Assembly: GCA_031392925.1 (NCBI GenBank)
Contig: JANMVV010000158.1
Location: 8,760 to 72,759, forward strand
Length of the DNA: 64,000 nt
Origin: Vicinamibacteria bacterium
Lineage (GTDB): Bacteria; Acidobacteriota; Vicinamibacteria; Fen-336; JAGNNV01
Direction: 5' to 3'
Shown in pieces: positions 12,535 through 62,304 of the stretch. The stretch's first letter is position 1, and each line of letters begins with the position of its first letter. The translations under genes and the position numbers were made by a program. The notes beneath the pieces are model-generated. The model saw only the letters and a list, made by a program, of their open reading frames with translations. It had not been told where the DNA came from and did not search any database.

Positions 12535-14784
12535 ATGAGCCGGACTACGCCTGGTCGCGACATCCGGTTCGCCACCGCCTTCTTCTTCTTGAGCGGAGCC
12601 GCCGCCCTCGTCTATCAGGTGGCCTGGCAGCGCCTCCTCGGCCTCACCACCGGCATCGCGGTCCATTCGGTCGCGATCATCACCGCCGCTTTCATGGCCG
12701 GCCTCGGCATTGGAAGCCAGGTGGGCGGCACGATGTCCGCGAGACTCACACCGAAGAGGTCGCTCATCGCATTCGCGGTGATCGAGCTTCTGGTGGCCGG
12801 CTTCGCAACCGTGAGCGTGCCCTTCTATTACGGCTTCCTGTATCGCTACATGCCGCAGTTGTACGACGGCATGGTTCAAGGAGCGATCACCCACTTCCTC
12901 TCCCTGCTTCCGCCCACCGCTCTCATGGGAATGTCGCTTCCTTTCCTGGTGCGCGGCCTCGTGAAGGACCAGGCAGACGCTCCCCGGACCATCGGGTTGC
13001 TGTATGGAGCAAACGCGCTCGGCGCCTCGGTCGGAGCGTTCCTGACCCCGTGGGTGCTCGTCCGGTTCCTCGGCGTAACCGGCGCGATTCTCGTAGGAGC
13101 GATCGGGAGCGCGATCGCCGGGATCGGCGCGCTGATCCTGGCCCGACGCACCGCCGCCGGGATGGCGCCCGAGGCGCCAAGCCAGGAGCCGAAGGCCGCG
13201 CCGATTCCCGATTCCACTGACGAGGCCGCTCAGCCTTTGGAGCGCTGGGTCCTCCTCTACGCCCTGTCGGGGTTCGTCTCGCTTTCTCTCGAAGTGGTCT
13301 GGTTCCGGGTCCTCGACGTAACCGCCAAGGGCGGGGCCTTCGCCTTTGGGACCTTGCTTGCCGTCTATCTCCTCGGGCTTTCCGCGGGTACGTTCGTGGC
13401 CGCGCGGCGGGCCGCATCGATAAGACGGCCGCTCGAGGTGTTCCTCACCTGCCAGATCGGCGTCGTCCTGGTCACCGTCCTCGCCCACTCCCTGCTGGTA
13501 TGGCTGCCCGCCTCATTTCCGGGAATCTCGTGGATCGTCGCGTACGGCAAGACGCCCTACGGCGTCCACCTTCGAGCCGCAAGCGTTTGGGAATTCCTGA
13601 TCGTCTACCTGGGCCTGCCCATTGCTCTGTTCGGACCATCCACCTTCCTCATGGGATTCGGATTTCCCGTGCTGCAACGCGCCACTCAGAAGGATCCCGT
13701 GAGCAGCGGCCGGACCGTGGGCCTCCTGCAGGCCGCCAACATCGCGGGCTGCACCCTGGGCAGTCTCTTCACCGGCCTCGTGCTCCTCGACAAGGTGGGA
13801 ACGTCGGGCGTCTTTCAGTCGCTCTCGGTGGTGTCCCTGATCATCGCGCTGCTGGGCTTTCGCGCCACCCGCCGTGCACGCTTCGGCTGGCTCGCCGCGG
13901 CGCTCCTGCTCCTCGGCATCACGTTCCCCGCGAACGAGCATCTTTGGCTGCGTCTGCATGGAGATCCCGATCCCGTGATCTCCCTCGTCGAAGAGGACGC
14001 CGCCAGCGTCACCCTGCTGACCCCCGAGGGCGAACGCTACAAGCTCTGGATCAACGGCCGGCACAACAGCTGGCTGCCCTATGGCTGGCTTCACACCGCC
14101 ATCGGCGCGTTCCCGGCGATCGTGCACCCGAATCCCGAAGATGTGGCCGTGGTGGGAATGGGCTCGGGCGACACAGCCTGGGCGGCCTCGTCGAACGAGA
14201 AGACCCAGCGCGTCGTGGTCTTCGAGATTGCATCGAGCCAGCCCCGTCTCATGGCGCGCGTCGCTTCCCGTGATGGCATGAGCCGGGTTGCGCAGTTCCT
14301 CGCCGACAAGCGGGTGACCATCGTCAAGGACGACGGCCGGCGGCGGCTCCACGCCGATGGCCGCAAGTACGACATCATCGTGGCCGACGCCATCGACACA
14401 GACTCGACGATGAGCAACAACCTCTACTCCGTCGAGTTCTACCGTCTCGTGAAGGACACGTTGAAGCCGGGCGGACTCATGTGCGTCCTCGGAAAGACCT
14501 CCAGGATTCGGGCGGCCGCCCAACGTGCCTTCCCTTACGCGGTGGCCTTCCGAGAGGACCTTCTTCTCGTGAGCGCCGATCCGATCGTCATCGACAAGGA
14601 GGCGTGGCTCGAGAAACTTAGGAGCCCGCATCTGGTCGAGTACTTCGGCAAAGCGAGGACCCGCGAGATCTCGGAGTTCGTGCGGGGAGCCGTCTACGCG
14701 AGGCTTCCACCAAACGGCGCCGAAGTGAACTGGGACCTCCAGCCGAAGGATGAATTCCTTCGGCCGTTCACCGGCCCGCGGTAG
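12535..14784 (+). CDS. Fused membrane domain / spermidine-synthase-family protein, copy 2 (tandem paralog)
   Basis: It has the same architecture as copy 1 and is collinear with it throughout (VVGMGSGDTAWA, DIIVADAIDTD...LYSVEFY). Confidence 0.8.
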   Translation: MSRTTPGRDIRFATAFFFLSGAAALVYQVAWQRLLGLTTGIAVHSVAIITAAFMAGLGIGSQVGGTMSARLTPKRSLIAFAVIELLVAGFATVSVPFYYGFLYRYMPQLYDGMVQGAITHFLSLLPPTALMGMSLPFLVRGLVKDQADAPRTIGLLYGANALGASVGAFLTPWVLVRFLGVTGAILVGAIGSAIAGIGALILARRTAAGMAPEAPSQEPKAAPIPDSTDEAAQPLERWVLLYALSGFVSLSLEVVWFRVLDVTAKGGAFAFGTLLAVYLLGLSAGTFVAARRAASIRRPLEVFLTCQIGVVLVTVLAHSLLVWLPASFPGISWIVAYGKTPYGVHLRAASVWEFLIVYLGLPIALFGPSTFLMGFGFPVLQRATQKDPVSSGRTVGLLQAANIAGCTLGSLFTGLVLLDKVGTSGVFQSLSVVSLIIALLGFRATRRARFGWLAAALLLLGITFPANEHLWLRLHGDPDPVISLVEEDAASVTLLTPEGERYKLWINGRHNSWLPYGWLHTAIGAFPAIVHPNPEDVAVVGMGSGDTAWAASSNEKTQRVVVFEIASSQPRLMARVASRDGMSRVAQFLADKRVTIVKDDGRRRLHADGRKYDIIVADAIDTDSTMSNNLYSVEFYRLVKDTLKPGGLMCVLGKTSRIRAAAQRAFPYAVAFREDLLLVSADPIVIDKEAWLEKLRSPHLVEYFGKARTREISEFVRGAVYARLPPNGAEVNWDLQPKDEFLRPFTGPR

Positions 14785-30674: not shown

Positions 30675-32801
30675 TTAGAGCTTGAAGTCGATTTGAATGG
30701 CGACCCAGGCCCGGCCGGGTTTGCCGTTGAGGGTGGCCGGCTTGTACTTGCGCCGTTTCACGTTGTCGAGCGCGGCCTGATTGAGGCCCGAGGTGCCGGC
30801 AACACCGCGGATGAGGCGGACTTCGGCCACGTTTCCCTGCTCGTCCACCAGCGCCGAGACCACCACGCTTCCGGTGATCCTCTGCGCACGGGCTATGGGC
30901 GGATACTCGATCCTGAACTGCGAGACGAGAATCGGGGCCACCACCACCGGGTCGGAGAGATCGAGCAGTGCCGGACCTCCGGCGGGCGCCGGGGCCGCGG
31001 CGGCTCCCGCGGGCGGCGGGACTGCAGCCGTGGGTGGGGGCGAGGCGGGGGAAGCGGCCACGGGAGCGGGCGTGCTCGCCGGAGCGATGGACGGGGATGC
31101 GGCGGCGGCCTCGAATGCTTTCGCGACCTCCGCGGCCCTCGCGGCCTCGGCGGCGCGAGTTTCCTCCGCCTTCTTCCTCTCCTCTTCGATCTTCAGACGC
31201 TCGGCCTGCAGACGGGCCTCCTGATCGGCCTGGGCCTTCTTCCTCGCTTCGTCCTGGGCCTTTTGCAGTTCCGCCGGATCGACGGCCCGGCCTTTCGCCT
31301 TGGCCTGAGCTTCGATCGTCTTCTTCGCTTCGTCCGCCGCCTTCTGTTCGGCCGCGACCTTTTCAGCCTCGAGCGCCGCGAGGCGCGACTCGAGCTCGCG
31401 AACCCGAGCGAGGGCCGCCGTCTCCGCCGCGTTCATGGTGGGCGCGGTGGCAGGGCCGGGAGTCGGAGCGGCGGAGCGCGTGAGGAAATAGCCCGCGACC
31501 GCCGCAACCACGACCACCCCGATGACAACCGGCGCCACGGGGAAGCCCTTCTTCTCGGCCAGGATGCTCTGGAAGAGCTGGTCTTCAGCCGGGCTCGGAG
31601 GCGCCGGGCTCGCCGCCGGCGCCGGAACGCGGCTGATGCGCCCCGAGTCGTGCTTGACCGGTTCAAACTTGGCGGCTTCCGCCTTGAAGGCCTCGGGCCG
31701 GATCGCGTCCATCCGAAGCGTGCTGTCGAGGGCGGCCCTGGGCGGAGCGGCGGGCGTCGACGCCGGCCCGCCGTGGACCAGGCCGGAGGCCGAGACCACC
31801 GTTGGCGCGGCCGCGGCGGGGGGAGCGCTCATCTCGGCGAGATACGGCCGGTAGTCCGCGTTCTTTTCGGCCTTGATCCGGGCCGCGTCGTCGTCTCCCT
31901 CGTCACGGAAAAGAGTGTGCATGAAGAACGCAAGATTGAACGTGGTCGGCGAATAGTCGCCGGAGAAGAGCAGAGTGTCGACCGCCTTCTTGAACGCGGT
32001 CGCATCCTTGAACCTCCGGCCCGGATCCTCGGCCAGGGCCTGGCCGAGGAGCGCCGCCAGCGCTTTGGGGATGGGCGCCCCGTCCGTTCCGGGCGACTGG
32101 ATCCTCGCGGCTTCGATGCTCTTGAGCGTCGATTCCGTCCGGGGCAGGGCCACCCCGGTGAGCATCTCGAAGAGTTGCGCGCCGAGACTGAAGATATCGG
32201 CCCTGATGTCGAGGGGCGCCGTCCCTTCCAGTTCAGGGGCGAGGAACCTGGCCTCGCGGACCCCCACGCAATTCGCGTTGCGCAGGACGCGAGGCGGCAG
32301 TCCGAAACCGCGGACACTGACTTCGCCGTCATGGGACACGTGGATGAATTCCGGAACCAGGAAGCCGTGGGTCTGCTTCTTACCCTGGGCCGCCTCGAGA
32401 GCGGCCGCGGCCTTGCTCGCGATCAGGAGGGCGTGGTCGGCGGCGAAAGGGTGGCCCTCGGCCTGCGACCGCTCCATGAGCGCGCCCACCGATCGGCCGT
32501 CGAACAGTTCATATGCCGAAAACGCCGTCTTGTCGAGGCGTCCGGCCTCGAAGCCGCGGACCACCTGCGCGTGCTGGACCGCCAGTCCGTTTTTCAGCCC
32601 GTCGGCCAGAGCCTGGGCGACCTCGGGGGCCAGGAGTTCGGAGCGAAACAGCTGGACATGCCGCTCGTATCCCGAGGTCCCCAGTTGTATGGCGCGAAAG
32701 AACGAGCCAGCGCTGGTTCGCGCGTCCTCGGACTGCAGGACGAACCGACCGTATCGCTCTTTGGTCTCCACGTGGCGCCTCGCTTCACGGACAGCAAACA
32801 C
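30675..32801 (-). CDS. Membrane pseudokinase (degenerate Hanks-type kinase fold) - TolA-like coiled coil - TonB C-terminal domain fusion
   Basis: The kinase-like domain retains APE/subdomain IX-XI (FLAPELEGTAPLDIRADIFSLGAQLFEMLTG) but has lost catalytic residues. HRD has become HGF, DFG has become GFG, the beta3 Lys is replaced by Gln (HVQLF), and the Gly-loop is degenerate. One TM helix follows, then a Lys/Ala/Glu coiled coil (EEERKKAEETRAAEAAR...), then a TonB_C domain (EYPPIARAQRITGSVVVSALVDEQGNVAEVRLIRG...LDNVKRRKYKPA...). Confidence 0.8.
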   Translation of the reverse strand: MFAVREARRHVETKERYGRFVLQSEDARTSAGSFFRAIQLGTSGYERHVQLFRSELLAPEVAQALADGLKNGLAVQHAQVVRGFEAGRLDKTAFSAYELFDGRSVGALMERSQAEGHPFAADHALLIASKAAAALEAAQGKKQTHGFLVPEFIHVSHDGEVSVRGFGLPPRVLRNANCVGVREARFLAPELEGTAPLDIRADIFSLGAQLFEMLTGVALPRTESTLKSIEAARIQSPGTDGAPIPKALAALLGQALAEDPGRRFKDATAFKKAVDTLLFSGDYSPTTFNLAFFMHTLFRDEGDDDAARIKAEKNADYRPYLAEMSAPPAAAAPTVVSASGLVHGGPASTPAAPPRAALDSTLRMDAIRPEAFKAEAAKFEPVKHDSGRISRVPAPAASPAPPSPAEDQLFQSILAEKKGFPVAPVVIGVVVVAAVAGYFLTRSAAPTPGPATAPTMNAAETAALARVRELESRLAALEAEKVAAEQKAADEAKKTIEAQAKAKGRAVDPAELQKAQDEARKKAQADQEARLQAERLKIEEERKKAEETRAAEAARAAEVAKAFEAAAASPSIAPASTPAPVAASPASPPPTAAVPPPAGAAAAPAPAGGPALLDLSDPVVVAPILVSQFRIEYPPIARAQRITGSVVVSALVDEQGNVAEVRLIRGVAGTSGLNQAALDNVKRRKYKPATLNGKPGRAWVAIQIDFKL

Positions 32802-32887
32802 CGGGGCTTCCTTCCTCTTGAAGTCGGATCGCCCACCGCGGCTGTCGTCCCGAGAACGCTACACGCCGAGCGACCCCGAGGTCAATG

Positions 32888-33760
32888 TCAGCGCTCCGAC
32901 GAACCTGCCTTGAGAACCACGCGTCCGTGCAGGGGCGAGGTAAACACCGCCCCCTCGTCACGGTCGATCGAGACGCAGGTCCAGCCGTCGACGGCATCGC
33001 CCACCGAGATGACGCGGACCTCGTCGCCCACGCGAATGGAGACGCGGCTCTTCCCTTCCGAGACCAGGAACGCGACCAGGGCAAACGGCGGCGCGGGCGC
33101 CGGCTCGACCGCGGGGATCGTCCCGGCCGGATCGAGAGGGGCAGCGGAAGGCGTCAGAGGGCGGGGCGGGGCGAGCCTTCGCGGCGTCTTCGAGACCTCA
33201 GGCAAAGGTGCAGCCTCCGCCGGAGGCGGATCCGAACCCCCGGAGCAGGCCGGGGGCGCGGGGATGCTGCCGCCCGGAAGCGATTCAAACACTCCGGTGT
33301 TGGCGGAGATGGCCCAGTTCTCGCCCTTTTCTCGAATGGAGACACCGCGCAGGAAGGCTCCGCGGCCCGGATCCCCCAGCCTCTTTAGAAGCTCCACTAC
33401 TGAGCGGTGCGCCCCGGTGGCCTCCACCGTGGCGCCTCCCTCGGAACCGCCGGTCACGCTCAGGGCGAAGGGCGATAGCGAAAGGCCGGCGGTCGCGGCG
33501 ACCGCGCGCTGACGCAGCGACGCCGGATCCGAGGAAGCCCGGCAGACGGTTCCGAGAGCGCTGCCGATGCGGGCGCGAAGGGCCTTTGTCTCGCCCACCC
33601 CGCGCTCGGCCTTGACCCGGTCGCGCCGGATCTTGCTCTGCTGGCTCAGTCGAGTCTCCTGCTCGGCCCGCATGGGAGCGACGAGACCGAACCACACGAT
33701 CGCCGCCAGGAGCCACGGCGCGATCGCTTGGACCTCCCGGCTCGTCCGGCGTTTCATCAT
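32888..33760 (-). CDS. PilO-like + PilP-like fusion (T4P/T2SS inner-membrane alignment-subcomplex-like protein)
   Basis: It starts at MMKRR (Met249 of the long track ORF), and this ATG overlaps the upstream TGA as ATGA. It has an N-terminal TM, a periplasmic ferredoxin-like region, a Pro-rich linker, and a C-terminal beta domain (VAFLVSEGKSRVSIRVGDEVRVISVGDAV...) resembling the PilP/GspC pilot domain. The first 248 codons of the track ORF are out-of-frame overlap and not coding. Confidence 0.5.
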   Translation of the reverse strand: MMKRRTSREVQAIAPWLLAAIVWFGLVAPMRAEQETRLSQQSKIRRDRVKAERGVGETKALRARIGSALGTVCRASSDPASLRQRAVAATAGLSLSPFALSVTGGSEGGATVEATGAHRSVVELLKRLGDPGRGAFLRGVSIREKGENWAISANTGVFESLPGGSIPAPPACSGGSDPPPAEAAPLPEVSKTPRRLAPPRPLTPSAAPLDPAGTIPAVEPAPAPPFALVAFLVSEGKSRVSIRVGDEVRVISVGDAVDGWTCVSIDRDEGAVFTSPLHGRVVLKAGSSER

Positions 33761-34290
33761 CGCGCGATCCCCTTCGGACGATGAAGGGCCGCGACGGTCG
33801 CGCGGACCAGGCCGGGGCGGCTCTCTGACCCGGGACGGATATCGCTGAAGCGCGGCGCCTTCGAAAGGGCGCTCAGGAAGCGGTCGTAGGCCTCGGGCCC
33901 GCGGGCGACCACAGCCAGTTCCACGCGAGCGGTCGCATCCGGCTGGTACTCGATCCTGTAACTCATCACCGAGACGCCCTGGGGAAGAATCTCCCGCAGA
34001 TCGGCGATGATCCGCTCGGGCGACGACTCCACGCTGGCGGCCGCGACGAGGAGGTCCGGACTCTTGAGCAGCATCCGCTTTTCGCTCTCGGCCGACTGAG
34101 CGAGCGCCGCCGCCTCGGCCATCGCCTTGCGCATCGATCGATCCGCCGAAGAGGCGGCCATTCCCTCGCTGGCCGCGATGGCGAGCGCATACGCGAGGGC
34201 CACGAAGCCCGCGATCTGCACGCCTCGCCAGGCGCCTTGCGCTTCGTCGGCGAGGGCGCGCGAGCCGAATTCGGGGAGGCCGAGGCTCAC
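33757..34290 (-). CDS. PilN/PilO/GspM-like bitopic membrane protein
   Basis: It has a short cytoplasmic N-terminus, one TM (GVQIAGFVALAYALAIAASEG), a coiled coil and a ferredoxin-like periplasmic domain. Its GTG start overlaps the upstream stop as GTGA. Confidence 0.45.
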   Translation of the reverse strand: MSLGLPEFGSRALADEAQGAWRGVQIAGFVALAYALAIAASEGMAASSADRSMRKAMAEAAALAQSAESEKRMLLKSPDLLVAAASVESSPERIIADLREILPQGVSVMSYRIEYQPDATARVELAVVARGPEAYDRFLSALSKAPRFSDIRPGSESRPGLVRATVAALHRPKGIAR

Positions 34291-35135
34291 TTCGAAGCAC
34301 TCTCGTGGAAGAGGGACAGGAACGGAAACCGCTGAGGATCGGCGGCGCCGCGAAGGGCCGGTTCATCGAACGCGGTCTGGATCGTGACATCGCTGGCCTT
34401 GCCCCGCAGGGAGGAGGCGTCCTCGCCGAGCACGCGGATTTCCGAGACTTCGCTCGCCGCCCGCAGGGCTTCGTCGATCGAGCGCTGACCCCGGTCGTCT
34501 CCAAGGACGAGGAGACGGAGGTGGATCGCGTCCATGACCCCGGAAGCGTCGCGGACCGCGATGGCGCAGGCCGAGTCGCCGAAGATGAGATCCACCGTGC
34601 CCGGTCTCGGCGGGAGGCCGCGCAGGGCGGCGGAGAGCGAGGACGTGACCCGGGGGCGGCCGAATCCGAGCGAGGTCATCACCCTCTCGCCTTCCTCGAT
34701 CGTGGTTTTGAGCACGGCCTGGGCCAGCACCGCGCCGCGGTGGACCGAGGACGAGCGTTCCGACCGGACCTCGGACAGCGCGATCGGAAAAGGCAGGAGG
34801 GGGGCCAGCCGGAACCGGACCAGATCGGCTTCCTCCACCTCCGGAGCCTGCGTCTTCTTCATGGCGGAGAGGTCGACGATCGAAGGAAAGGAGGCGCCCA
34901 GGGGCAGGAGGAGCGTGGCGTCACCGGAAGGGGCCTTGAGTTCGCGGGAGAGGCGAGAGACCGCCTCCCTCGAATCGGCCAGGACATCGGAAAAGAGGTC
35001 GCCCCCGCTGGCGCGCGACGCGAACCGCTCCGAACCGAAACGTTCCAGGCGCGGGCCCGAGAAACCCTCCCGATAGACCGCGAGGGCGGCGCTGCGCGTG
35101 TCGACAAAGACGAGCGCCTTCTCGGAGAACCACAT
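34287..35135 (-). CDS. PilM/GspL-cytoplasmic-domain-like (actin-like ATPase fold) protein
   Basis: It has an N-terminal KALVFVDTRSAALAVYREGFSGPRLERFGSERF pattern matching the first beta-hairpin of PilM. It is soluble with no TM. Confidence 0.4.
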   Translation of the reverse strand: MWFSEKALVFVDTRSAALAVYREGFSGPRLERFGSERFASRASGGDLFSDVLADSREAVSRLSRELKAPSGDATLLLPLGASFPSIVDLSAMKKTQAPEVEEADLVRFRLAPLLPFPIALSEVRSERSSSVHRGAVLAQAVLKTTIEEGERVMTSLGFGRPRVTSSLSAALRGLPPRPGTVDLIFGDSACAIAVRDASGVMDAIHLRLLVLGDDRGQRSIDEALRAASEVSEIRVLGEDASSLRGKASDVTIQTAFDEPALRGAADPQRFPFLSLFHESASK

Positions 35136-35269
35136 GGGGACTCAATCTTAGGGTGTCTTTGCATCATATGAACCCCTTGACCCTTTCGCTAAGATCCGGG
35201 CAGTTGATTCCAATACGTCCGTGAACCCTCCGGGCGGTTCTCCCAGGCCCGGCTCAGAGTGGAGGTCCC

Positions 35270-37369
35270 ATGAAGGCTTTCGAGAGCACGCAGATCCGCA
35301 ACGTGGCGCTGGTCGGTCACGGAGGCTGCGGGAAGACCTCGATCGTGGCCGACGCTCTGTTCACCATGGGGGTGACGCCGAGGCTCGGCCACGTCACCGA
35401 TGGCACCGCGGCCACCGACTTCGACCCCGAGGAGATCGAGCGAAAGATTTCGATCCAGACTTCGGTCGCGAGCGGTGACTGGGCGGACACCCGCATCAAC
35501 CTCATCGACACGCCCGGATACGCGAACTTCGTGGGCGAGGCGCTCTCCGCTCTGCGGGCCGCCGATGCCGCCATCGAAGTGGTCGACGCGGTCGCGGGGC
35601 CGGAGGTGCAGACCCATCGCCTTTTTCACGCGGCCGAGGACATGGAGCTTCCGCGCGTCTTCGTGATCAATCGGATGGACCGCGAGAACGCCTCATTCGG
35701 CCACACCGTGGAGGCCCTGCGGAAGGCCTTCGGACGCACGGTCACTCCCATCGAGTTCCCCATCGGGGAAGGAGCCGCGTTCAAGGGTGTCGTCGACCTG
35801 GTGAACTCCAAGGCCTGGGCGTTTCTGGACGACGAGAGCGGCACCTTCAGCGAGTTCAAGATGACCAAGGATCTCGAGGAGGCGACGGTGCGCTTCCGCC
35901 AGGAGCTCGTGGAGGTGGTGGCCGAGACCGATGAGGCGCTCATGGCCGAGTTCTTCGACAAGGGGACGCTGTCGCCGGAAGCACTCGGGGAAGGACTGAA
36001 GAAGGCGTGCCAGCGCGGCCAGATCTTCCCCACCCTTCCCTTCTCTTCGATCAAGAACATCGGCGCGGCCCAGCTGCTGAACGCGATTGTCGCCTACCTG
36101 CCGAGCCCCACCGACCGGCCGGAGGTGAAGGGCAAGGGCCCCGCGGGCGAAGAGTCGAGGCCCTGCTCGGTGAGCGCGCCCGCCTCGGCCTTCGTGTTCA
36201 AGACCATCTCCGATCCGCACGCCGGACGCCTCTCCTTCGTGCGCGTGGTCTCGGGAAAGTTCAATCACGACCTCACCATCACGGTTTTGAGCCGCGACGT
36301 CCAGGAGCGCGTGGGGGCCTTGTCCCACGTGGTCGGGAAGACCCTCGTCCCCGCCACCGAACTGATCGCCGGCGACATTGGCGTGATCGCAAAACTCAAG
36401 GAGGCCCACACTGGAGACACGCTCTCCGACAAGGCCCGCCCGATCACCTTCCCGCCCATCGACTGGCCGGAAACCCTCACCACCTTCGCGATCGCGCCGA
36501 AGACGCGGGGCGACGACGACAAGATCGGCATCGCGATGAGCCGCCTCATCGAAGAAGACCCGGTCCTGAAACTCGAGCATGCCACCGAGACCCATGAGCT
36601 GCTCCTGCGCGGCCTCGGCCAGCTCCACATCGAGACCGTCGTCTCCAAGCTCGCCAAGCGCTACAAGGTGGAGGTGAACCTCAAGCGCCCCACCATCCCC
36701 TATCGCGAGACCATCAAGGCTTCGGCCGACGGCCACGGGCGCCACAAGAAGCAGACCGGCGGTCACGGCCAGTTCGCGGACTGCAAGATCACCATGCGTC
36801 CCCTGGCGCGCGGGGAAGACTTCAAGTACATCAACGGCACCTTCGGCGGCTCCATTCCCAGGAACTTCCTGCCCGCCATCGAGAAGGGCATCCAGGAAAG
36901 CCGCAAGCGCGGCGTCATCGCGGGCTGTCCCATGGTGGACTTCGAAGTGGAGGTCACCGACGGCCAGTTTCATGACGTCGACTCCTCGGAAATGGCCTTC
37001 AAGATCGCGGGGTCGCTGGCCTTCAAAGACGCGGTCGCGAAGTGCCGGCCCACCCTGCTCGAGCCCATGATGGCGGTGGAGGTGGTGATGCCCGAGGAGT
37101 TCGCGGGGGCGGTGATGGGCGACCTGTCCAGCCGTCGCGGCCGGCCCCAGGGCATGGAGCCTTTCCGCGATCTTCAGAAGATCAAGGCGGAGGTCCCGCT
37201 GGCCGAACTCGAGACCTTCGATCAGGACCTCACCTCTCTTACCGGCGGCCGCGGTTCCTTTCACATGGAGTTGATCCGGTACGATGAGGTGCCGGGCCAC
37301 CTTCTCGATAAGGTGGCGGCCGAGATCCGGGCTCACCGACCCGGAGACCATCACAAGGAAGAGGAATAG
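35270..37369 (+). CDS. Elongation factor G paralog (EF-G-like) with degenerate GTPase switch II
   Basis: It has the full five-domain EF-G length and retains the domain IV tip ([14 protein letters not shown]). G1 is GHGGCGKTS rather than [10 protein letters not shown]3 is DTPGY rather than DTPGH, so the catalytic His is replaced by Tyr. G4 is NRMD. Confidence 0.8.
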   Translation: MKAFESTQIRNVALVGHGGCGKTSIVADALFTMGVTPRLGHVTDGTAATDFDPEEIERKISIQTSVASGDWADTRINLIDTPGYANFVGEALSALRAADAAIEVVDAVAGPEVQTHRLFHAAEDMELPRVFVINRMDRENASFGHTVEALRKAFGRTVTPIEFPIGEGAAFKGVVDLVNSKAWAFLDDESGTFSEFKMTKDLEEATVRFRQELVEVVAETDEALMAEFFDKGTLSPEALGEGLKKACQRGQIFPTLPFSSIKNIGAAQLLNAIVAYLPSPTDRPEVKGKGPAGEESRPCSVSAPASAFVFKTISDPHAGRLSFVRVVSGKFNHDLTITVLSRDVQERVGALSHVVGKTLVPATELIAGDIGVIAKLKEAHTGDTLSDKARPITFPPIDWPETLTTFAIAPKTRGDDDKIGIAMSRLIEEDPVLKLEHATETHELLLRGLGQLHIETVVSKLAKRYKVEVNLKRPTIPYRETIKASADGHGRHKKQTGGHGQFADCKITMRPLARGEDFKYINGTFGGSIPRNFLPAIEKGIQESRKRGVIAGCPMVDFEVEVTDGQFHDVDSSEMAFKIAGSLAFKDAVAKCRPTLLEPMMAVEVVMPEEFAGAVMGDLSSRRGRPQGMEPFRDLQKIKAEVPLAELETFDQDLTSLTGGRGSFHMELIRYDEVPGHLLDKVAAEIRAHRPGDHHKEEE

Positions 37370-38664
37370 TGCTGAAGAAGATCGCGTCGATTGTCGCCCT
37401 CCTGTCCCTTGTAGGGCCCTCCGTGTGGGCTCAGACCGCGAGTCCCACGCCGGGTCCCGCCTCCACGCCCTCGCCGGGCCCCGCCGCTCCGGGGGCGAAG
37501 GCCGTCGATGCGAAGCTCGCCGGCCAGGATGTGCCGGTACCGGCCCGGAAGAAGTACGTCGCTCCCGAGTACCCGGCGAGCGCCGCGGCGGAAGGAATCC
37601 GCGGGATCGTCATTCTCGATGTCCTGATCGCGGAGGACGGCCGAGTGGAGAGCACCCGGGTGACCCGGTCCATCCCGGGCCTCGATGAAGCGGCGATGAA
37701 CGCGGTGAGGCTCTGGGAATACGAGCCCACGAAGCTTACGGGCAAACCCGTGAAGGTCCGGCTGTCGCAGTCGATCACCTTCGCCTTGAAGCTGCCCGAA
37801 CTGCAGCGCGCTCCCGGCATTCCGGAACTGAAGAGCGGGGGCGCGCCGCCCTTGCCTCCGGGCCTCGCCACCGCGGAGACGGCCTCGGTCATGATCGCTC
37901 TCGGTCCCCAGGGGGAAGTCCAGGAAGCGGCGGTGGTCGAGGGCAATCCTTCGGCGGGCGAAGCCCTGCTGCGCGCGGTGAAGGCCTGGCGCTTCACGGT
38001 CTCGGAAGGCGCTCCGCCCCTCGTGTTCACGGTGCGTGCGGACTGGGCGCCCGGACCTCCGCCCACCCTCGCCCTCAAGGCCCTGGACCCGCGAAGCCCC
38101 AACCCGGCCGCCGCATCCCCGGCCCCCCGGGCGTCCCCGTTGCCCGCGCCCTCGTCGTCGCCCACCGCGGCGAGCACGTCCACGGCTGCGCCTTCTGCCG
38201 CGCCCAAGGCCCCGGTGGCAACGTCCCCCGTGCCCGCGGTGACCGCGGTCCCTGCCGCACCCAGCGTTCCCGTGGCTCCCGCCCCCGTGGCTCCCACGGT
38301 GGATACCGACGTGATCCCCGCACGTCAGGAGCCTCCGGCGAAGGAGGAGGGGGTCTCAGCGGTGGCCGAAGTGAGTCTTGGCAACAACATCCCGGACCTG
38401 GTGAAGGGCCGGCGGCCAGTGTGGCCGCCCATGGCGCGCCTCGGCAACGTCATGGGCGAGGTGGTGGTGCGATTCTCCGTGGACCTCGCGGGCCGGGTCA
38501 CGGTTCATTCCGCCGAAGGGCCGGACCTGCTCAAGGGCGCGGCCGAGCAGGCGGTGGGCACCTGGGTCTTCAGGCGAACCGCTATCGACCGGGTGCACCT
38601 CATCGCAACCTTCAAGTACGGGGCCGAGCGGTCGATCGCGAAAGTCGAGCGGGTGGCGCAGTAG
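37369..38664 (+). CDS. Secreted protein with two to three tandem TonB C-terminal-like domains
   Basis: It has a signal peptide and a Pro/Ala-rich linker. The TonB_C-like patterns are at ~aa 60-140 (KKYVAPEYPASAAAEGIRGIVILDVLIAEDGRV...LDEAAMNAVRLWEYEP), at ~175-235 (weaker), and at ~330-420. Its GTG start overlaps the EF-G-like TAG by 1 nt. Confidence 0.65.
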   Translation: MLKKIASIVALLSLVGPSVWAQTASPTPGPASTPSPGPAAPGAKAVDAKLAGQDVPVPARKKYVAPEYPASAAAEGIRGIVILDVLIAEDGRVESTRVTRSIPGLDEAAMNAVRLWEYEPTKLTGKPVKVRLSQSITFALKLPELQRAPGIPELKSGGAPPLPPGLATAETASVMIALGPQGEVQEAAVVEGNPSAGEALLRAVKAWRFTVSEGAPPLVFTVRADWAPGPPPTLALKALDPRSPNPAAASPAPRASPLPAPSSSPTAASTSTAAPSAAPKAPVATSPVPAVTAVPAAPSVPVAPAPVAPTVDTDVIPARQEPPAKEEGVSAVAEVSLGNNIPDLVKGRRPVWPPMARLGNVMGEVVVRFSVDLAGRVTVHSAEGPDLLKGAAEQAVGTWVFRRTAIDRVHLIATFKYGAERSIAKVERVAQ

Positions 38665-38679
38665 CCGGCGCGCCGAAAG

Positions 38680-38712
38680 AAAATGGGCGGCCAACCGGGC
38701 CGCCCACTCTTT
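38680..38712. terminator. Bidirectional rho-independent terminator hairpin between convergent genes (end of the ribosomal super-operon)
   Basis: The sequence is GGGCGGCC-aaccg-GGCCGCCC. On the minus strand it is followed by ATTTTCTTTC. Confidence 0.55.
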
Positions 38713-38734
38713 CAAGACTACGAGGCTGTTCTGA

Positions 38735-39166
38735 CTACTTCGTGGCGGCCGCGGGGGCCTTCTCACCCTTTGGAGCCTTCTCTTTGGCCTTGTACTCGTA
38801 ACCGACGAGCTCGATGAAGGCGGTGTCCGCGTTGTCGCCAGGACGGTGGCCGAGCTTGACGATGCGGGTGTAGCCGCCGCTTCTGGTCTGGAACCTCGAC
38901 CCGATCACGTCGAACAGCTTCTTCACGATGAGCGGATCGTGGATGTCCCGGGCGGCCAGACGCCGCGCGTGCACGCGCTCGGCCGCCGTTCCCTCGCGCT
39001 TGGCCAAGGTGATGATCTTCTCGGCGAAGGGACGGAGCTCCTTCGCCTTCGGAAGCGTCGTCTCAATGCGCTCTTCGCGGAGCAGCGCGGTGGCGAGATT
39101 CCGCAGCAAGGCGATACGGTGGGCGGTGGTGCGTCCCAGCTTTCGTCCGGCGGATCGATGTCTCAT
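38735..39166 (-). CDS. rplQ: 50S ribosomal protein L17
   Basis: [24 protein letters not shown]... is a canonical L17. Confidence 0.9.
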
Positions 39167-39229
39167 GGTCTTTGGTCCTTAGTTTGAGTTTGCCACCCTT
39201 CCTTCGGAAGGGTGGCAATGACGGTGTGA

Positions 39230-40234
39230 TTAGTCGCGCCGGAGAAGGTCGGGCTGAAGCCGCATGCCGAGGGAGAGCCCCCACTTGCGCAGCTGATCCT
39301 TGGTTTCGTTGAGCGACTTCTGACCGAACTTGTTGATCCGGAGCAGCTCGCTCTCGGTGCGCACCACCAGCTCGCCCACGGTCTTGACGTTGATCTGGGT
39401 GAGGCAGTTGTAGGCGCGGACGGGCAGCTCGAGATCGTCGATCTTGCGGCCGAGCTTCTCGCGCAGGGCCTCTCGATCGGTGTCGCCCACCGGCAGGGGA
39501 GCCGCTTCGGACGCCGCCTGGGGGAGCGCTTCGGCCTGCTCGGGGAGGTTCAGGAACATCAGCATGTGCTCGCGGATGAGACGAGCGGCGAGGCCCACCG
39601 CGTCGCGCGGGGTGGTGACGCCGTTGGTCCAGACTTCGAGGGTGAGCTTCTCGTAGTCGGTGGCCTGGCCGACGCGGGCCGCTTCCACGAAGTAGTTCAC
39701 CTTGCGGACGGGCGAGTGAACGGAGTCGATGGGAATCCAGCCGATGGAGAGCGACTCGTCAAAGTTCTTCTCGGCGGGGATGTAGCCGCGGCCCGGCTTC
39801 ACCACCATCTCGATGTTGAGCGAGGAGCCGGCGGAGAGGGTCGCGATGTAGGCCTCGGGATCGAGGATGTCGACGTCGGCGTCGGGGGTGATGTGCTTGG
39901 CCCGGATCTCGCCCGCCTCGGAGGTCTTCAAGTAGATCGTCTTGGGATGATCGACGTTGAGACGCAGCGAGAGCTTCTTGAGGTTCAGGATGAGGTCGGT
40001 CGCGTCCTCGGTGGCGCCGGGGATGGGCGAGAACTCATGCAGCACGCCCTCGATGCGGATCGCGGTGACCGCGGCGCCCTCGATGCTCGAGAGCAGGACG
40101 CGACGCATCGCGTTGCCGACCGTGGTTCCAAAACCGCGCTCGAAAGGCTGCGCGAAGAAACGGCCGTAGGTGTCGTTCGAGATCTCGTCGTCCATCTCGA
40201 GGTGGCGGGGGCGCTGAAAGCCTTTCCAAAGCAT
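39230..40234 (-). CDS. rpoA: DNA-directed RNA polymerase subunit alpha
   Basis: It has full-length alpha NTD+CTD motifs. Confidence 0.95.
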   Translation of the reverse strand: MLWKGFQRPRHLEMDDEISNDTYGRFFAQPFERGFGTTVGNAMRRVLLSSIEGAAVTAIRIEGVLHEFSPIPGATEDATDLILNLKKLSLRLNVDHPKTIYLKTSEAGEIRAKHITPDADVDILDPEAYIATLSAGSSLNIEMVVKPGRGYIPAEKNFDESLSIGWIPIDSVHSPVRKVNYFVEAARVGQATDYEKLTLEVWTNGVTTPRDAVGLAARLIREHMLMFLNLPEQAEALPQAASEAAPLPVGDTDREALREKLGRKIDDLELPVRAYNCLTQINVKTVGELVVRTESELLRINKFGQKSLNETKDQLRKWGLSLGMRLQPDLLRRD

Positions 40235-56217: not shown

Positions 56218-58317
56218 TTACGTGGTGCGCTGCGCCTTGCCGGACGACTTGGCGATGACTTCTTCGGCGACGTTCCGGGGCGCTTCTTCGTACTTCTCGA
56301 AGTGCATCGTGTAGGTCGCGCGTCCCTGCGTGCGCGACCGCAGGTCCGTGGAATAACCGAACATGTTGGAAAGAGGAACCAGCGCGTTGATGAGGTTGGT
56401 GCCGCCGCGCGAGGTCTGGCCCTGGAGCTGACCGCGGCGGGACGACAGGTCTCCGGAGACAACCCCGGTGTACTCGTCGGGGGTGACCACTTCGACCTTC
56501 ATAATGGGCTCGAGAATGACGGGATCGGCCTTGCGCGCGCCATTTTGAATGGCGAGCGAGCCCGCCAGCTTGAACGCCATTTCACTGGAGTCGACGTCGT
56601 GGTAGCTGCCGTCGTAGAGCCGAACATGGACGTCCACCATGGGAAAGCCGGCCAGGACGCCGCGTTCGAGCGCTTCCTTGACCCCCATCTCGATGGGCTT
56701 GATGAATTCCTTGGGAATCGATCCGCCGGTCAGGTCGTTCTCGAACACGAAGCCCAGGCCGGGATTCGGCGCGCATTCGATCTTGCAATGTCCATACTGG
56801 CCCTTGCCGCCGCTCTGCTTGATCCACTTGCCTTCGGCCAGCGCCTTCTTGCGGATGGTCTCGCGGTAGGCGACCTGGGGCTTGCCCACGTTCGCTTCCA
56901 CGCCGAACTCGCGTTTCAACCGGTCCACGATGATCTCAAGATGGAGTTCGCCCATGCCGGAGATCTTGGTCTGGTTGGTCTCGGGATCGCTCTCGACCTT
57001 GAAGGTCGGATCTTCCTGCATGAGCTTGCCCAGACCGACGCCCATCTTTTCCTGGTCGGTCTTGGTCTTGGGCTCGACGGCCAGGGAGATGACGGGAGCC
57101 GGGAACACGATGGCTTCCAGAAGGACAGGCTTGTCGCCGTCGCAGATGGTGTCCCCGGTGGACACGTTCTTGAGGCCGATCGCGGCCGCGATATCGCCCG
57201 CGTAGATCTCCTTGATCTCTTCGCGCTTGTTCGCGTGCATCTTGACCAGGCGGCCGATGCGCTCGCGCGTGCCCTTGGTGGCGTTCAGGAGGGTGTCTCC
57301 CGCCTTCATCTGGCCGGAGTACACGCGGATGAACGCGAGCTGGCCGACGAAGGGATCGGTCATGATCTTGAAAACGAGGCCAGAGAAGGGCGCGCTGTCA
57401 TCGCAGGGACGCTCGACCGGCTGCCGCGTGTCCGGATCGATGGCGACGGTCGGCGGGATGTCGAGGGGCGAGGGCAGGTAGGCGATGACCGCGTCGAGCA
57501 TGGGCTGCACGCCCTTGTTCTTGAACGCGGTGCCGCAGACCACCGGGAAGAGCTTGAGCGCGATGGTGGCCCGGCGGATGCCGGCCTTCAGCTCGGCGGT
57601 GGTGATCTCTTCACCCTTGAGGAACTTGTCGGTGAGGTGATCGTCGACCTCCGAGACCGTCTCGATGAGGTGGTCGCGGGAGAGCTTGGCCTCTTCGAGC
57701 ATGTCGGCGGGGACCTCTTCCGTCTTGTACTCGGCGCCCATGGTCTCGTCTTCGTACCGGTACGCCTTCATCTCGACGAGGTCGATCACGCCGATGAACT
57801 TGTCCTCGGCGCCGATGGGAAGCTGGATCGCCACCGGGGTCTTGGCCGAGAGGCGATCGATCATCATGTCGATGCAGTGCTGGAAATCGGCGCCCACGCG
57901 GTCCATCTTGTTGATGAAGGCGATGCGGGGGACGTTGTACTTGTCGGCCTGGCGCCACACCGTCTCGGACTGGGGCTGCACGCCGGAGACCGCGTCGAAG
58001 ACCGCGACCGCGCCGTCCAAAACCCGGAGCGAACGCTCGACCTCAGCGGTGAAGTCGACGTGGCCCGGAGTGTCGATGATGTTGATCCGGTGGTCTTTCC
58101 AGAAGCACGTGGTCGCGGCGGAGGTGATGGTGATGCCACGCTCCTGCTCCTGCTCCATCCAGTCCATGGTGGCGGTGCCGTCGTGGACTTCACCGATCTT
58201 GTAGTTGACACCGGTGTAGAAAAGAATCCGCTCGGTCGTCGTGGTCTTGCCCGCGTCGATATGCGCGGCAATCCCGATGTTGCGGGTCTTTTCGAGAGAG
58301 GTAGAACGAGCAGCCAC
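56218..58317 (-). CDS. fusA: Elongation factor G (canonical)
   Basis: [27 protein letters not shown]. Confidence 0.95.
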
Positions 58318-59704: not shown

Positions 59705-61033
59705 CTAGCGCTGCGCGGACAGCCTCGTGAGTGAATCGACCACCGCCTTCGCCTCCGCGCCAGTGACGATGCGCCACGGTTCGAAGGCGCCCGATGGGGC
59801 ATTCTGCATGACTCCAGCGCCCACCACTCTCACCACCGAGCTGTATTGAAGATGGGAAGGCGACATATCCCTGGGAGCCGCTCCGTTCGATCTCCCCCAC
59901 CCCACGAGATCGAGGACGCGCGCCGCCACCACCGCCAACTCGCCGCGGCGAACCACGCCGGAGGGCTGGAAGGTGTGATTCGGGTAAACGTCCATCAGCC
60001 CGAGTTCAAGGGCACGCAAGACCTGGGGACGGGCCCAGGTTTTCGAGAGATCGGACGCCACTTCGCCTTTGTTCTCGGGTTTCCTGGACTTGAGAATCTC
60101 CACTTTCTCCACCACCAGCGCCGCGAGTTCAGCCCGGGTGATGCGAGGCGCCTCGCCGATCGCGCGCAGCGGCTCGGGCAGAGCCAGTGAGGCGCGCCGG
60201 TCCTTGATGCGGGCAAGCAGAGCGGCTCCCTCCGTATCCTCGGCCAGGTCTTTGAGACCGCGCTTGAGCGCCATCTCGGCTCCGTCGAGATCTCCGTCTT
60301 CGAAACGGATGGAGGCGATCCGGATGGCGATGTTTCGGTCGGCATCCTGCGCGGCGGCCAGGACGGAAAGGGCTTCGGTGCGGCGTCCCGACTCCACGAG
60401 GAGATCCGCGAGTTCGAGGCGGACCGGGGACAATTCGGGGGCCACTTCGATCGCCCTTTGCAGCATAACGATGGCCTCCGCCTTCTTCCCCTCGGCCGAA
60501 AGGGCCCCCGCCTGGCCGATCGCCGCCTCGGCCACCGCGAGCTTCACCTCGCTCGCGCGCCGACTGAGGGCCGCATCCTTCGGCCGAAGCCGCTCCGCTT
60601 TCACATATAGAGGAAGGGCCTGGTCGAGAAGGCCTTGCTTCCGCTTCACCGAGGCGAGACCGACGAGGGCGGCCACGTCGTTTCGCTCCGCGGTCAGAAC
60701 CGAAGTGAAGATCGCCTCAGAGTCCTTGAGCCGGTTTGCCCGGAGGGCGGCAAACCCGAGAACGATCCGGGCGGGCGCCAGGTCCGGACGGCCCGAAGCG
60801 AGCTTGCTGACCGTCTGCTCGGCCCGCGCGGTCTGGCCGGCGAGAATGTCGTCCCACGCTCGATGGAGGGCCTTCTCGTCGCGCGAGGGCATCTCGCCGC
60901 GCTTGATTTCCGGAAAGACGTAGTCGGAGTCGTCGACCTGGGGGGTGGCCACTCTCGCGCCACAGGCGGAAAGAAAAAGGGCGAGGATCCCAGCCACGCC
61001 CAGCGCGCTGGCCACGCGTCGGGTCGTCTTCAT
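59705..61033 (-). CDS. TPR-repeat lipoprotein
   Basis: It has a lipobox (LFLSAC) and multiple TPR-like helical repeats. Its start overlaps the hflX stop as ATGA. Confidence 0.65.
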
Positions 61034-62304
61034 GCGATGGCGAGGAGGGCCCGGGTCGAGGCCTCGGCCTGCAGGACGACCTGGCCGAACTCGTCGCGCG
61101 TCTGGGAGAGGACTTTGGCATGGCGATAGACGTTCGCGATCCGCCGTTCGTCCTGAGGATCGATGCGCAGGGTCACCGGCCGCGGCAGCATGTCCAGCAT
61201 CTCCGCGATGCGTCGTTTCAGGACATCGAGGCCCTCGCCGGTCAGGGCGGAAAGCGGCACCGCGTCGGGCCGCTCCGACCGGAGGGCCAGGCGGGCCGCG
61301 TCGTCCGCGCCATCGATCTTGTTGATGACGACCAGCCGATTGGGCGATTCTTCCGCGCCGATCTCTTCCAGCACTTCCCGGACCGCCTTCTCCTTCTCCG
61401 CCATCTCGGGATCGGTCCCATCGACCACGTGAATCACGAGGTCCGCTTCAACCACTTCTTCGAGGGTGGCGCGGAAGGCGGCGACGAGGCCATGCGGCAG
61501 GTGGCGGATGAAACCGACGGTGTCGACGAGGACGATGTTCTCGCGTTCGCCGATGCGCACGCCGCGCATCAGAGGATCGAGGGTCATGAACAGGCGATCG
61601 GAGATTTCGACTTTCTCTTCGCCGGTGAGCGCCCGGAAGAGGCTGGACTTCCCCGCGTTGGTGTAGCCCACGAGCGAAACCACGGGCTCGGCGCGACGGC
61701 GGCGGCCTTCGCGCCTTGTCCCCCGCTCGCGCCGGACGTGCTCGATCGACTCCTTGAGCACCGAAACGCGGGTGCGGATGCGACGCCGGTCGGTTTCGAG
61801 TTTCGTTTCACCCGGACCCCTGGTGCCGATGCCGCCGCCCAGGCGCGAGAGGGAAACGCCCTTCCCGGTGAGCCGGGGCATCAGGTACTGAAGCTGAGCG
61901 AGCTCGACCTGGAGCCGGCCCTCGCGGGACCGGGCGCGCTGGGCGAAGATGTCAAGAATCAGTTCGGTTCGATCGAGCACCTTGACCTCGAGTTTCGCCT
62001 CGAGATTTCGCGCCTGCACCGGGGAGAGTTCGGCATCGACCATCACGATGGTGATGGCCTTCTCCGACACCAGCTCCTTGAGCTCGTCGACCTTGCCGCT
62101 GCCGAAGTACGTGGCGGAGTCGGGACGCTTTCGCTCCTGCGAAATCACCTCCACGATCCTGGCGCGCGCGCTCTTCGCCAGCAGGGTCATCTCCTCGAGG
62201 GAGACGGCGGCGGCCTCGCGTTCGCGGCTGGTCCGATAGGTGCCGCAGATCAGGGCACGTTCGTGCCGTTCAGTTCTTGTCTTGGTGCTCAATGGGTCGG
62301 CCAA
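61030..62304 (-). CDS. hflX: GTPase HflX
   Basis: It has an HflX N-domain plus a G domain (LVGYTNAGKSSLFRALT, DTVGF). Confidence 0.85.
   Translation of the reverse strand: MADPLSTKTRTERHERALICGTYRTSREREAAAVSLEEMTLLAKSARARIVEVISQERKRPDSATYFGSGKVDELKELVSEKAITIVMVDAELSPVQARNLEAKLEVKVLDRTELILDIFAQRARSREGRLQVELAQLQYLMPRLTGKGVSLSRLGGGIGTRGPGETKLETDRRRIRTRVSVLKESIEHVRRERGTRREGRRRRAEPVVSLVGYTNAGKSSLFRALTGEEKVEISDRLFMTLDPLMRGVRIGERENIVLVDTVGFIRHLPHGLVAAFRATLEEVVEADLVIHVVDGTDPEMAEKEKAVREVLEEIGAEESPNRLVVINKIDGADDAARLALRSERPDAVPLSALTGEGLDVLKRRIAEMLDMLPRPVTLRIDPQDERRIANVYRHAKVLSQTRDEFGQVVLQAEASTRALLAIA

Follow-up and report, generated by a model that had tools for sequence, protein, structure and literature searches.

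Elongation factor G (EF-G) is divided into four subfamilies, defined by Margus, Remm & Tenson 2011 (PMC3150367). The hallmarks of one of them, EFG II (EF-G2), are a Gly-first P-loop (GHxxxGKT), loss of the RGITI consensus with Ser for Thr, and the lack of the catalytic His. The G2 motif of EFG II varies, with RxxSI in Clostridia and RxxT/SI in delta-proteobacteria, and the same two groups are given as weakly diverged and near the root of the subfamily. Thirteen diagnostic EFG II positions are tabulated, while the text of the same paper says twelve. Here, we analyzed a 64-kb stretch of DNA from a Vicinamibacteria bacterium (contig JANMVV010000158.1, positions 8,760 to 72,759; hereafter the window) that encodes, besides the canonical EF-G gene fusA, a full-length EF-G paralog, whose gene runs directly into that of a predicted secreted protein made of TonB C-terminal-like (TonB_C) modules.

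Several EF-G2 proteins have been characterized. Thermus thermophilus EF-G-2 has been reported to keep GTPase and poly(Phe) synthesis activity despite a Tyr at the place of the catalytic His (PMC3150367), so that loss of the His alone is no proof of GTPase loss. Mycobacterium smegmatis EF-G2 is non-essential and stress-associated, with minimal ribosome-dependent GTPase and no recycling activity; in M. smegmatis EF-G1, the substitution H88Y nearly abolishes the ribosome-dependent GTPase. Bacteroides EF-G2 catalyzes translocation without GTP hydrolysis, according to papers citing the original work. Its gene, fusA2, is induced 238-fold by carbon limitation, with fusA falling, and is under the master regulator of carbohydrate uptake. 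The account that we favor for the window, with a probability of roughly 75%, is that the paralog belongs to EFG II, is co-transcribed with the downstream TonB_C gene and would serve as a translocase of low GTPase activity in times of stress.

A second EF-G with altered motifs

The paralog is 699 amino acids (aa) long and all five EF-G domains are present (GTP_EFTU, EF-G_D2, EFG_III, EFG_IV, and EFG_C, identified with Pfam). Its gene and main motifs are as follows.

35270 to 37369, plus strand: paralog of EF-G, very probably EF-G2 (EFG II subfamily), 699 aa, ATG start (open reading frame list, Pfam, NCBIfam)
35315 to 35341, plus strand: P-loop (G1) GHGGCGKTS, aa 16-24, with Gly16 where EFG I has Ala
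35441 to 35455, plus strand: switch I / G2 motif RKISI, aa 58-62, with Ser61 instead of Thr
35507 to 35530, plus strand: switch II / G3 motif DTPGYANF, aa 80-87, with Tyr84 (TAC, 35519-35521) instead of the catalytic His
36737 to 37012, plus strand: domain IV tip, loop I GRHKKQTGGHGQ and a second loop; Lys493/Lys494 are the EFG II type II positions 498/499

A preliminary description of this DNA had named a full-length paralog besides fusA, the three G-domain motifs and a conserved domain IV tip, and all of these were confirmed. The G4 motif is NRMD (aa 134-137), and the second conserved stretch of the domain IV tip lies at aa 568-581. Tyr84 aligns with His87 of T. thermophilus EF-G and His86 of the fusA product of the window, which carries DTPGH. 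It is fusA (56218 to 58317, the coordinates of the preliminary description, but on the minus strand and followed by tuf), not the paralog, that sits in the str operon.

In the sequence, the nucleotide-binding elements of the paralog (P-loop, DxxG, and NxxD) are intact, and the GTPase-activating elements are changed in the manner of EFG II, with His replaced by Tyr, Thr of RGITI by Ser, and AHIDA of the P-loop by GHGGC. In switch I, the Arg and Ile are kept and the Thr is replaced, as are the catalytic His and the Ile-Asp of the P-loop. Also intact is the tip of domain IV, the part of EF-G that enters the decoding center, and it carries extra positive charge (GRHKKQTGGHGQ).

Assignment to EFG II

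The diagnostic residues of EFG II, in T. thermophilus EF-G numbering and as tabulated in PMC3150367, comprise the type I residues Gly19, Leu28, Ser64, Thr316, Gly360, and Lys/Arg379 and the type II positions Asp224, Val258, Leu272, Lys498, Lys499, Glu543, and Gly633. In a MAFFT alignment, the paralog matches 11 of the 13. Five of the six type I residues are present (Gly16, Ser61, Thr312, Gly356, and Lys375), and the sixth is the conservative Ile25 instead of Leu. Six of the seven type II residues are present, including the Lys-Lys of domain IV loop I; position 258 is Thr, not Val. At the six type I positions, the fusA product of the window has A, T, T, I, A, and G, in each case the residue of EFG I. 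RKISI agrees with the relaxed G2 consensus of EFG II (xxxSx), and RxxSI occurs in more than 100 homologs. The paralog falls outside canonical EFG I, with all three canonical EF-G motifs altered, a TIGR00484 score below the cut-off, and a gene that is not part of the str operon.

Scores against NCBIfam models were as follows.

TIGR00484, canonical EF-G (cut-off 659): paralog 612 bits, below; window fusA 1135
NF009377, EF-G-like protein EF-G2 (cut-off 890): paralog 638 bits, below; window fusA 540
NF009381, broad 'elongation factor G' (cut-off 583): paralog 859 bits, passes; window fusA 812
NF058620, EFG2_Bacteroid (cut-off 1000): paralog 553 bits, below
NF012153, tet_protect (cut-off 775): paralog 299 bits, below; window fusA 387

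The paralog passes the broad NF009381 model alone, and public records therefore name it 'elongation factor G'. Its score below the NF009377 cut-off (638 versus 890) places it in the weakly diverged part of EFG II. Identities as a Tet-like protein, RF3, BipA, or LepA were considered and rejected, all scores being far under the cut-offs of the NCBIfam models.

In a neighbor-joining tree of 79 sequences, built with no spdEFG references and used only for the unrooted EFG I split, T. thermophilus EF-G, the fusA product of the window, and two His-bearing representatives form a clan with 100/100 bootstrap support that excludes both the paralog and T. thermophilus EF-G-2 (1WDT). Because of long branches, midpoint rooting of this tree gives no clean EFG II clade. 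The high divergence and many indels in domains I-III that are listed as a trait of EFG II are absent from the paralog, which aligns end to end with canonical EF-G with two small gaps (518 bits) and in this is similar to the weakly diverged groups near the EFG II root in Clostridia and delta-proteobacteria; this trait is a tendency of the family and no strict criterion. Taken together, the sequence evidence makes it very likely that the paralog is a member of EFG II, an ancient and widespread second copy always found beside canonical EF-G. The motif features that had been presented as peculiarities of this protein were already known as marks of EFG II, a widespread subfamily (Margus et al. 2011, PMC3150367).

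Conservation of Tyr84 and selection on both genes

The motif D[TA]PGY together with an RxxS[IL] effector loop is found in 118 of the best 120 homologs. Across 80 genome loci, the residue at the Tyr84 position is Tyr, Phe, or Lys, and His in none: Tyr in Vicinamibacteria, Holophagales, and some Clostridia-labelled metagenome-assembled genomes (MAGs), Phe in Thermoanaerobaculia, and Lys in Terriglobia and others. A more distant set, the best 150 matches (36-54% identity) from 1.84 billion cluster representatives, has Y in 69, F in 32, D in 12, S in 6, A and H in 5 each, and N in 4. Purifying selection acts on both genes of the pair: against five orthologs, the paralog has a dN/dS of 0.07-0.11 and the TonB_C gene after it one of 0.18-0.31.

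A predicted exported protein with three TonB_C modules

The gene downstream of the paralog encodes a 431-aa protein with the following parts.

37369 to 38664, plus strand: 431-aa protein, predicted to be secreted, built of three TonB C-terminal-like modules, GTG start (Pfam TonB_C E = 5e-31)
37369 to 37431, plus strand: predicted signal peptide, aa 1-21
37510 to 37791, plus strand: module 1, aa 48-141
37798 to 38091, plus strand: module 2, aa 144-241
aa 242-329, between modules 2 and 3: Pro/Ala-rich disordered linker
38356 to 38661, plus strand: module 3, aa 330-431

The N-terminus reads MLKKIASIVALLSLVGPSVWA/Q, that is MLKK followed by IASIVALLSLVG and PSVWA/Q (the slash marking the cleavage site), and has a positively charged start, a hydrophobic core of 12-14 residues, and an A-x-A-type signal-peptidase site. 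This signal-peptide N-terminus is kept in 30 homologs, nearly all of which have a small residue and then Gln after the hydrophobic region. These features point to a Sec signal peptide, with the protein predicted to be exported and cleaved and to reside in the periplasm.

Two to three TonB_C-like domains had been proposed. Pfam detects two stretches (PF03544, 107 bits), corresponding to modules 1 and 3, but structure prediction and profile-profile comparison settle on three. AlphaFold predicts, with a mean pLDDT of 75 and values above 85 within each of the three modules, a beta-beta-alpha-beta arrangement at residues 49-140, 145-240, and 330-428, with a disordered Pro/Ala-rich linker at roughly residues 245-326, and the modules are related to each other in hhalign comparisons (E = 8.6e-9, 1.4e-5, and 4.7e-6). 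Foldseek ranks the TonB C-terminal domain 6i97_D first (TM 0.86), and the TonB C-terminal domain (PF03544) of P. aeruginosa and E. coli superposes on part of the predicted structure with TM 0.76-0.86.

A true TonB, however, has one C-terminal domain rather than three, and an N-terminal anchor helix with a Ser/His motif that couples it to ExbB-ExbD, whereas the 431-aa protein has a cleavable-looking signal peptide with no His. Its Pro/Ala-rich spacer is also placed unlike that of TonB, between modules 2 and 3. Since it lacks the TonB membrane anchor, the protein is TonB-like in fold but no conventional energy transducer. Consistent with the preliminary description, Pfam detected no ExbB, ExbD, Plug, or TonB-dependent receptor domain in most of the larger open reading frames (ORFs) of the window outside the ribosomal-protein/str block, nor did the related loci inspected contain exbB/exbD or TonB-dependent receptor genes. 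A literature search for multi-TonB_C periplasmic proteins in Acidobacteria returned nothing relevant.

A probable two-gene transcription unit

Three features outside the two coding sequences bear on their transcription.

35136 to 35269, no strand: divergent intergenic spacer of 134 bp with the paralog's ribosome-binding site and, likely, promoter(s) (nine Vicinamibacteria loci aligned)
37355 to 37371, plus strand: junction of the two genes, with the Shine-Dalgarno-like AAGGAAGAGGAA (37355-37366), TAG stop (37367-37369), and GTG start (37369-37371), a 1-base overlap
38684 to 38706, no strand: GC-rich 9-bp hairpin with adjoining A- and U-tracts, in the gap that separates the TonB_C gene from rplQ, which runs towards it (seen by eye, RNA fold)

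The overlap of the TAG with the GTG of a signal-peptide protein, first noticed in the preliminary description, is thus borne out, and the same 1-nt stop/start overlap is found in L001, L008, and L083 (loci are given by L numbers throughout). The 134-bp distance to a divergent operon encoding a second TonB_C protein (30675-32801) was likewise found as described.

Three blocks of the spacer are invariant across the nine Vicinamibacteria loci: TGCATCA (35160-35166), CCCTTGAC (35174-35181), and GCTAAGAT (35188-35195), the last of which is -10-like. The sequence GGAGGTC directly before the ATG of the paralog is also invariant in these loci, its GGAGGT being 4 nt away from the ATG. The -10-like block recurs in inverted orientation as ATCTTAG (35145-35151), some 10 nt from where the divergent gene starts. 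This layout suggests two back-to-back promoters in the spacer, of which the one on the minus strand would be nearly leaderless. The distance from TTGAC to TAAGAT is 7-8 nt, which does not fit a standard sigma-70 promoter, and a scan of 34900-39300 for consensus sigma-70 promoters and terminators returned no promoter, and terminators at chance level only. A promoter within the 134-bp spacer is nevertheless likely, as judged from the conserved blocks. An Rfam scan of 30-42 kb returned no leader and no riboswitch.

The hairpin folds with -31.9 and -31.6 kcal/mol on the two strands (z = -3.6 and -2.7) and is likely a bidirectional intrinsic terminator that the automatic scan missed. With the invariant blocks upstream, it fits one two-gene transcription unit. 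Given the 1-nt stop/start overlap and the single terminator hairpin after the second gene, we consider it probable that the EF-G2 and TonB_C genes are co-transcribed.

The pair is specific to the class Vicinamibacteria

The EF-G2/TonB_C pair occurs in every Vicinamibacteria genome locus with enough downstream DNA (L001 and L003-L009) and in five further contig contexts (L081, L082, L083, L085, and L086), with EF-G2 identity down to about 61%; in all, 13 of the 13 genome and contig contexts examined in this class have it. When metagenomes were scanned with the TonB_C protein as seed, 80 loci were returned, 62 of them informative. In 60 of these 62, EF-G2 is encoded upstream in the same orientation, directly adjacent in 57, with identities down to about 58% for EF-G2 and about 38% for the TonB_C protein. 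When genome and metagenome loci are pooled (73 loci), the spacer between the two genes is 0-20 nt in 41, 21-150 nt in 16, overlapping or unreadable in 13, and more than 2 kb in three.

Unrelated genes on the opposite strand separate the pair in L109, L149, and L153 (an S-layer-homology (SLH) protein, or a MacB-like permease plus PadR). The insertions in L109 and L149 were considered as TonB-dependent receptors and rejected, as they are the SLH protein and the MacB-like permease plus PadR. Only L094 and L157 have no EF-G2 upstream of the TonB_C gene. In L094 (35-1768), a TonB_C-repeat homolog that is 85% identical is preceded by the C-terminus of a beta-ketoacyl synthase; this short contig may be chimeric. 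In L085, the pair and the divergent PilN-like operon are kept and the ribosomal alpha-operon is not adjacent. On this 392-kb long-read contig, the EF-G2 homolog is present as two ORFs of 481 and 190 aa (L085:4890-6993), with its TonB_C partner intact downstream. The split is either an assembly frameshift or a genuine pseudogene.

Outside Vicinamibacteria, tblastn gave no TonB_C match within 6 kb of EF-G2 in about 70 genome loci; the downstream neighbors there are unrelated and include aminotransferases, hybrid histidine kinase/response regulators, and an asparaginase. In seven loci from Terriglobia-type and related MAGs (L010, L015, L025, L035, L038, L045, and L049), an EF-G2 with His replaced by Lys is followed by a gene of about 700 aa, which encodes a hybrid response-regulator/GAF/PAS/histidine-kinase in the three tested (L010, L015, and L025) and, going by ORF size, probably in the others. 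This may be a different, lineage-specific regulatory pairing. The two-gene unit described here is a lineage-specific arrangement of the class Vicinamibacteria. Conservation in related genomes, which the preliminary description had singled out for checking, therefore holds within this class, with occasional interruptions.

Function of the paralog and meaning of the pair

By analogy with its characterized relatives, the paralog would bind GTP and the ribosomal factor-binding site like EF-G, its ribosome-stimulated GTP hydrolysis would be weak or absent, and it would then offer a slow or energy-saving alternative for translocation, or be a stress factor that binds the ribosome, probably under nutrient limitation. 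For the specific role of a stress-time translocase with low GTPase activity, the analogy gives about even odds. The earlier proposal, a factor that binds ribosomes and whose GTPase is impaired or altered, agrees with the experiments on relatives, but T. thermophilus EF-G-2, with the same Tyr, is reported to keep its GTPase. As for the pair, the simplest reading would be shared regulation from the divergent promoter region, for which a physical or mechanistic link is not needed. A functional link between EF-G2 and the TonB_C protein is unproven.

Several observations weigh against this account. The raw score of the paralog to canonical T. thermophilus EF-G (518 bits) exceeds those to T. thermophilus EF-G-2 (450) and Bacteroides EF-G2 (440). 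As a protein below the EF-G2 equivalog cut-off, in the weakly diverged part of EFG II, it may differ in its biochemistry from the members studied. Those members themselves conflict, as T. thermophilus EF-G-2, with its Tyr, hydrolyzes GTP, unlike the proteins from mycobacteria and Bacteroides. The sequence does not tell whether the paralog is an active GTPase, and a starvation role would be drawn from analogy only. Finally, adjacency in 57 of 62 loci across a whole class exceeds that of most unrelated gene pairs, and a real functional link could lie behind it.

Errors or decay could in principle produce such a locus, with the paralog a decaying duplicate, or with Tyr84 a sequencing or assembly error and the downstream start an annotation artefact. 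A single base separates His (CAC) from Tyr (TAC), and the EF-G2 gene is split in two ORFs on one related contig (L085). Against this, the ORF is intact and full-length in dozens of independent assemblies, Tyr recurs in 118 of 120 close homologs (the comparison that the preliminary description had named as able to expose DTPGY as a sequencing error), dN/dS of the paralog is 0.07-0.11, and the signal-peptide N-terminus of the downstream protein is kept in 30 homologs. Tyr conservation and dN/dS rule out a sequencing error or a pseudogene, and the chance left to an explanation of this kind is close to nil. A role of the paralog in ribosome protection or antibiotic self-resistance (in the manner of Tet(M)/Tet(O), or as a decoy for an EF-G target), rather than in translation, is also very improbable. 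Ribosomal protection proteins are indeed EF-G homologs with altered function, and the paralog has a weak tet_protect match, but its 299 bits are far under the cut-off of 775 and the canonical fusA product of the window scores higher (387). Moreover, its domain IV loops are of the EF-G and not the Tet type, the gene context holds no resistance or biosynthetic genes, and throughout the class the family is chromosomal, keeps its synteny, and is conserved by vertical descent.

The remaining alternative concerns the pair itself, which could be a true functional module, either a starvation or envelope-stress unit or one in which EF-G2 aids translation of the Pro/Ala-rich secreted proteins encoded on either side. 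Such a module might also take in the divergent PilN-like/pseudokinase-TonB_C operon. The pairing in 13 of 13 Vicinamibacteria contexts, the direct adjacency in 57 of 62 metagenome loci despite identities of about 58% for EF-G2 and 38% for TonB_C, and its persistence in L085 without the neighboring ribosomal operon all speak for it, and the control of Bacteroides fusA2 by the master regulator of carbohydrate uptake is a precedent for coupling EF-G2 to nutrient acquisition. The pairing is, however, absent from every non-Vicinamibacteria EF-G2 locus examined, opposite-strand genes interrupt it in L109, L149, and L153, and no ExbB, ExbD, or TonB-dependent receptor gene is nearby; one protein is cytoplasmic and the other exported, which makes direct interaction implausible. 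We therefore regard a functional module as unlikely. A more specific form, in which EF-G2 and the triple-TonB_C protein of Vicinamibacteria are a selected unit, for example a nutrient-limitation module that couples low-cost translation to the envelope or nutrient-uptake apparatus, perhaps together with the divergent operon that shares the 134-bp region, is distinctly unlikely. If true, it would connect an EF-G paralog with the cell envelope in a way so far undescribed for any EFG II member.

Under the favored account of an EFG II member co-transcribed with its neighbor, what is new is the class-specific, mostly tight operon with a secreted triple-TonB_C protein; the EFG II family and the motif features flagged earlier are known. 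The preliminary description saw no obvious functional logic in the pair, a remark that is no evidence of a new system. The pairing is a small new comparative observation that could guide expression studies and by itself reveals no new system. The public label 'elongation factor G' hides the EFG II membership of a protein whose relatives include GTP-free translocases and stress factors, and that, once recognized as such, is a probable starvation-type translation factor of Vicinamibacteria, a soil group that is abundant and grows slowly.

Other genes of the window

Throughout Vicinamibacteria, a divergent four-gene operon (30675-35135, minus strand) is kept together with the pair. Its products are three small proteins of 282, 177, and 290 aa and, from the last gene, one of about 700 aa. 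For the three small proteins, Pfam and NCBIfam gave a faint PilN hint alone (the 177-aa protein, E = 0.012). The last protein (30675-32801) combines a kinase-like domain, a Pro/Ala-rich linker, and a TonB_C domain and is the second TonB_C protein of the region. On inspection by eye, the catalytic motifs HRDLKPxN and DFG are replaced by HGFLVPEF and RGFG, which makes the protein a putative pseudokinase.

Elsewhere, two tandem paralogs of about 748 aa each (10227-12470 and 12535-14784, plus strand) combine an MFS-like membrane domain with a spermidine/spermine-synthase-like domain. Just past the str operon (59705-62304, minus strand) are a gene for a TPR and SLH protein and hflX, a ribosome-associated GTPase; in L109, the gene that lies between EF-G2 and TonB_C likewise encodes an SLH protein.

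Comparison with characterized EF-G2 proteins

The EFG II prototype, T. thermophilus EF-G-2 (PDB 1WDT/2DY1), has the motifs GHAGSGKTTL and DAPGYGDF and thus the same Tyr for His as the paralog. EFG II and the paralog have in common a canonical EF-G alongside, the Gly-first P-loop, RxxSI, Thr316, Gly360, Lys379, and the Lys-Lys of loop I. Unlike most EFG II members, the paralog is far less diverged, with about 38-39% identity to EFG I and no large indels, and it departs from EFG II at positions 28 (Ile for Leu) and 258 (Thr for Val). The EFG II subgroups named in the sections of Margus et al. 2011 (PMC3150367) used here include no Acidobacteriota or Vicinamibacteria subgroup.

Bacteroides thetaiotaomicron EF-G2 (fusA2, BT2167; PDB 7UVP/8DMF; NF058620) is an EF-G paralog, as is the window protein. 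When aligned with canonical EF-G, the latter shows no insertion of the Bacteroides EF-G2 kind. In work attributed to Han et al. 2023 (EMBO J), the missing GTPase of Bacteroides EF-G2 is said to depend on a lineage-specific insertion of 26 residues.

M. smegmatis EF-G2 (PDB 9K0Z/9K10) resembles the paralog in its His-to-Tyr change (Tyr98 for His88) and in its altered P-loop and switch I. The mycobacterial protein has, however, lost all switch I residues that contact the sarcin-ricin loop (SRL) and has TKLD as its G4 motif, whereas in the paralog the switch I Arg and Ile (RKISI) are still present and G4 is NRMD, and it may therefore retain more activity than M. smegmatis EF-G2. As a weakly diverged natural variant with the switch I Arg and Ile kept and Tyr in place of His, the paralog lends itself to finding out by which substitutions the GTP hydrolysis triggered by the ribosome is lost.

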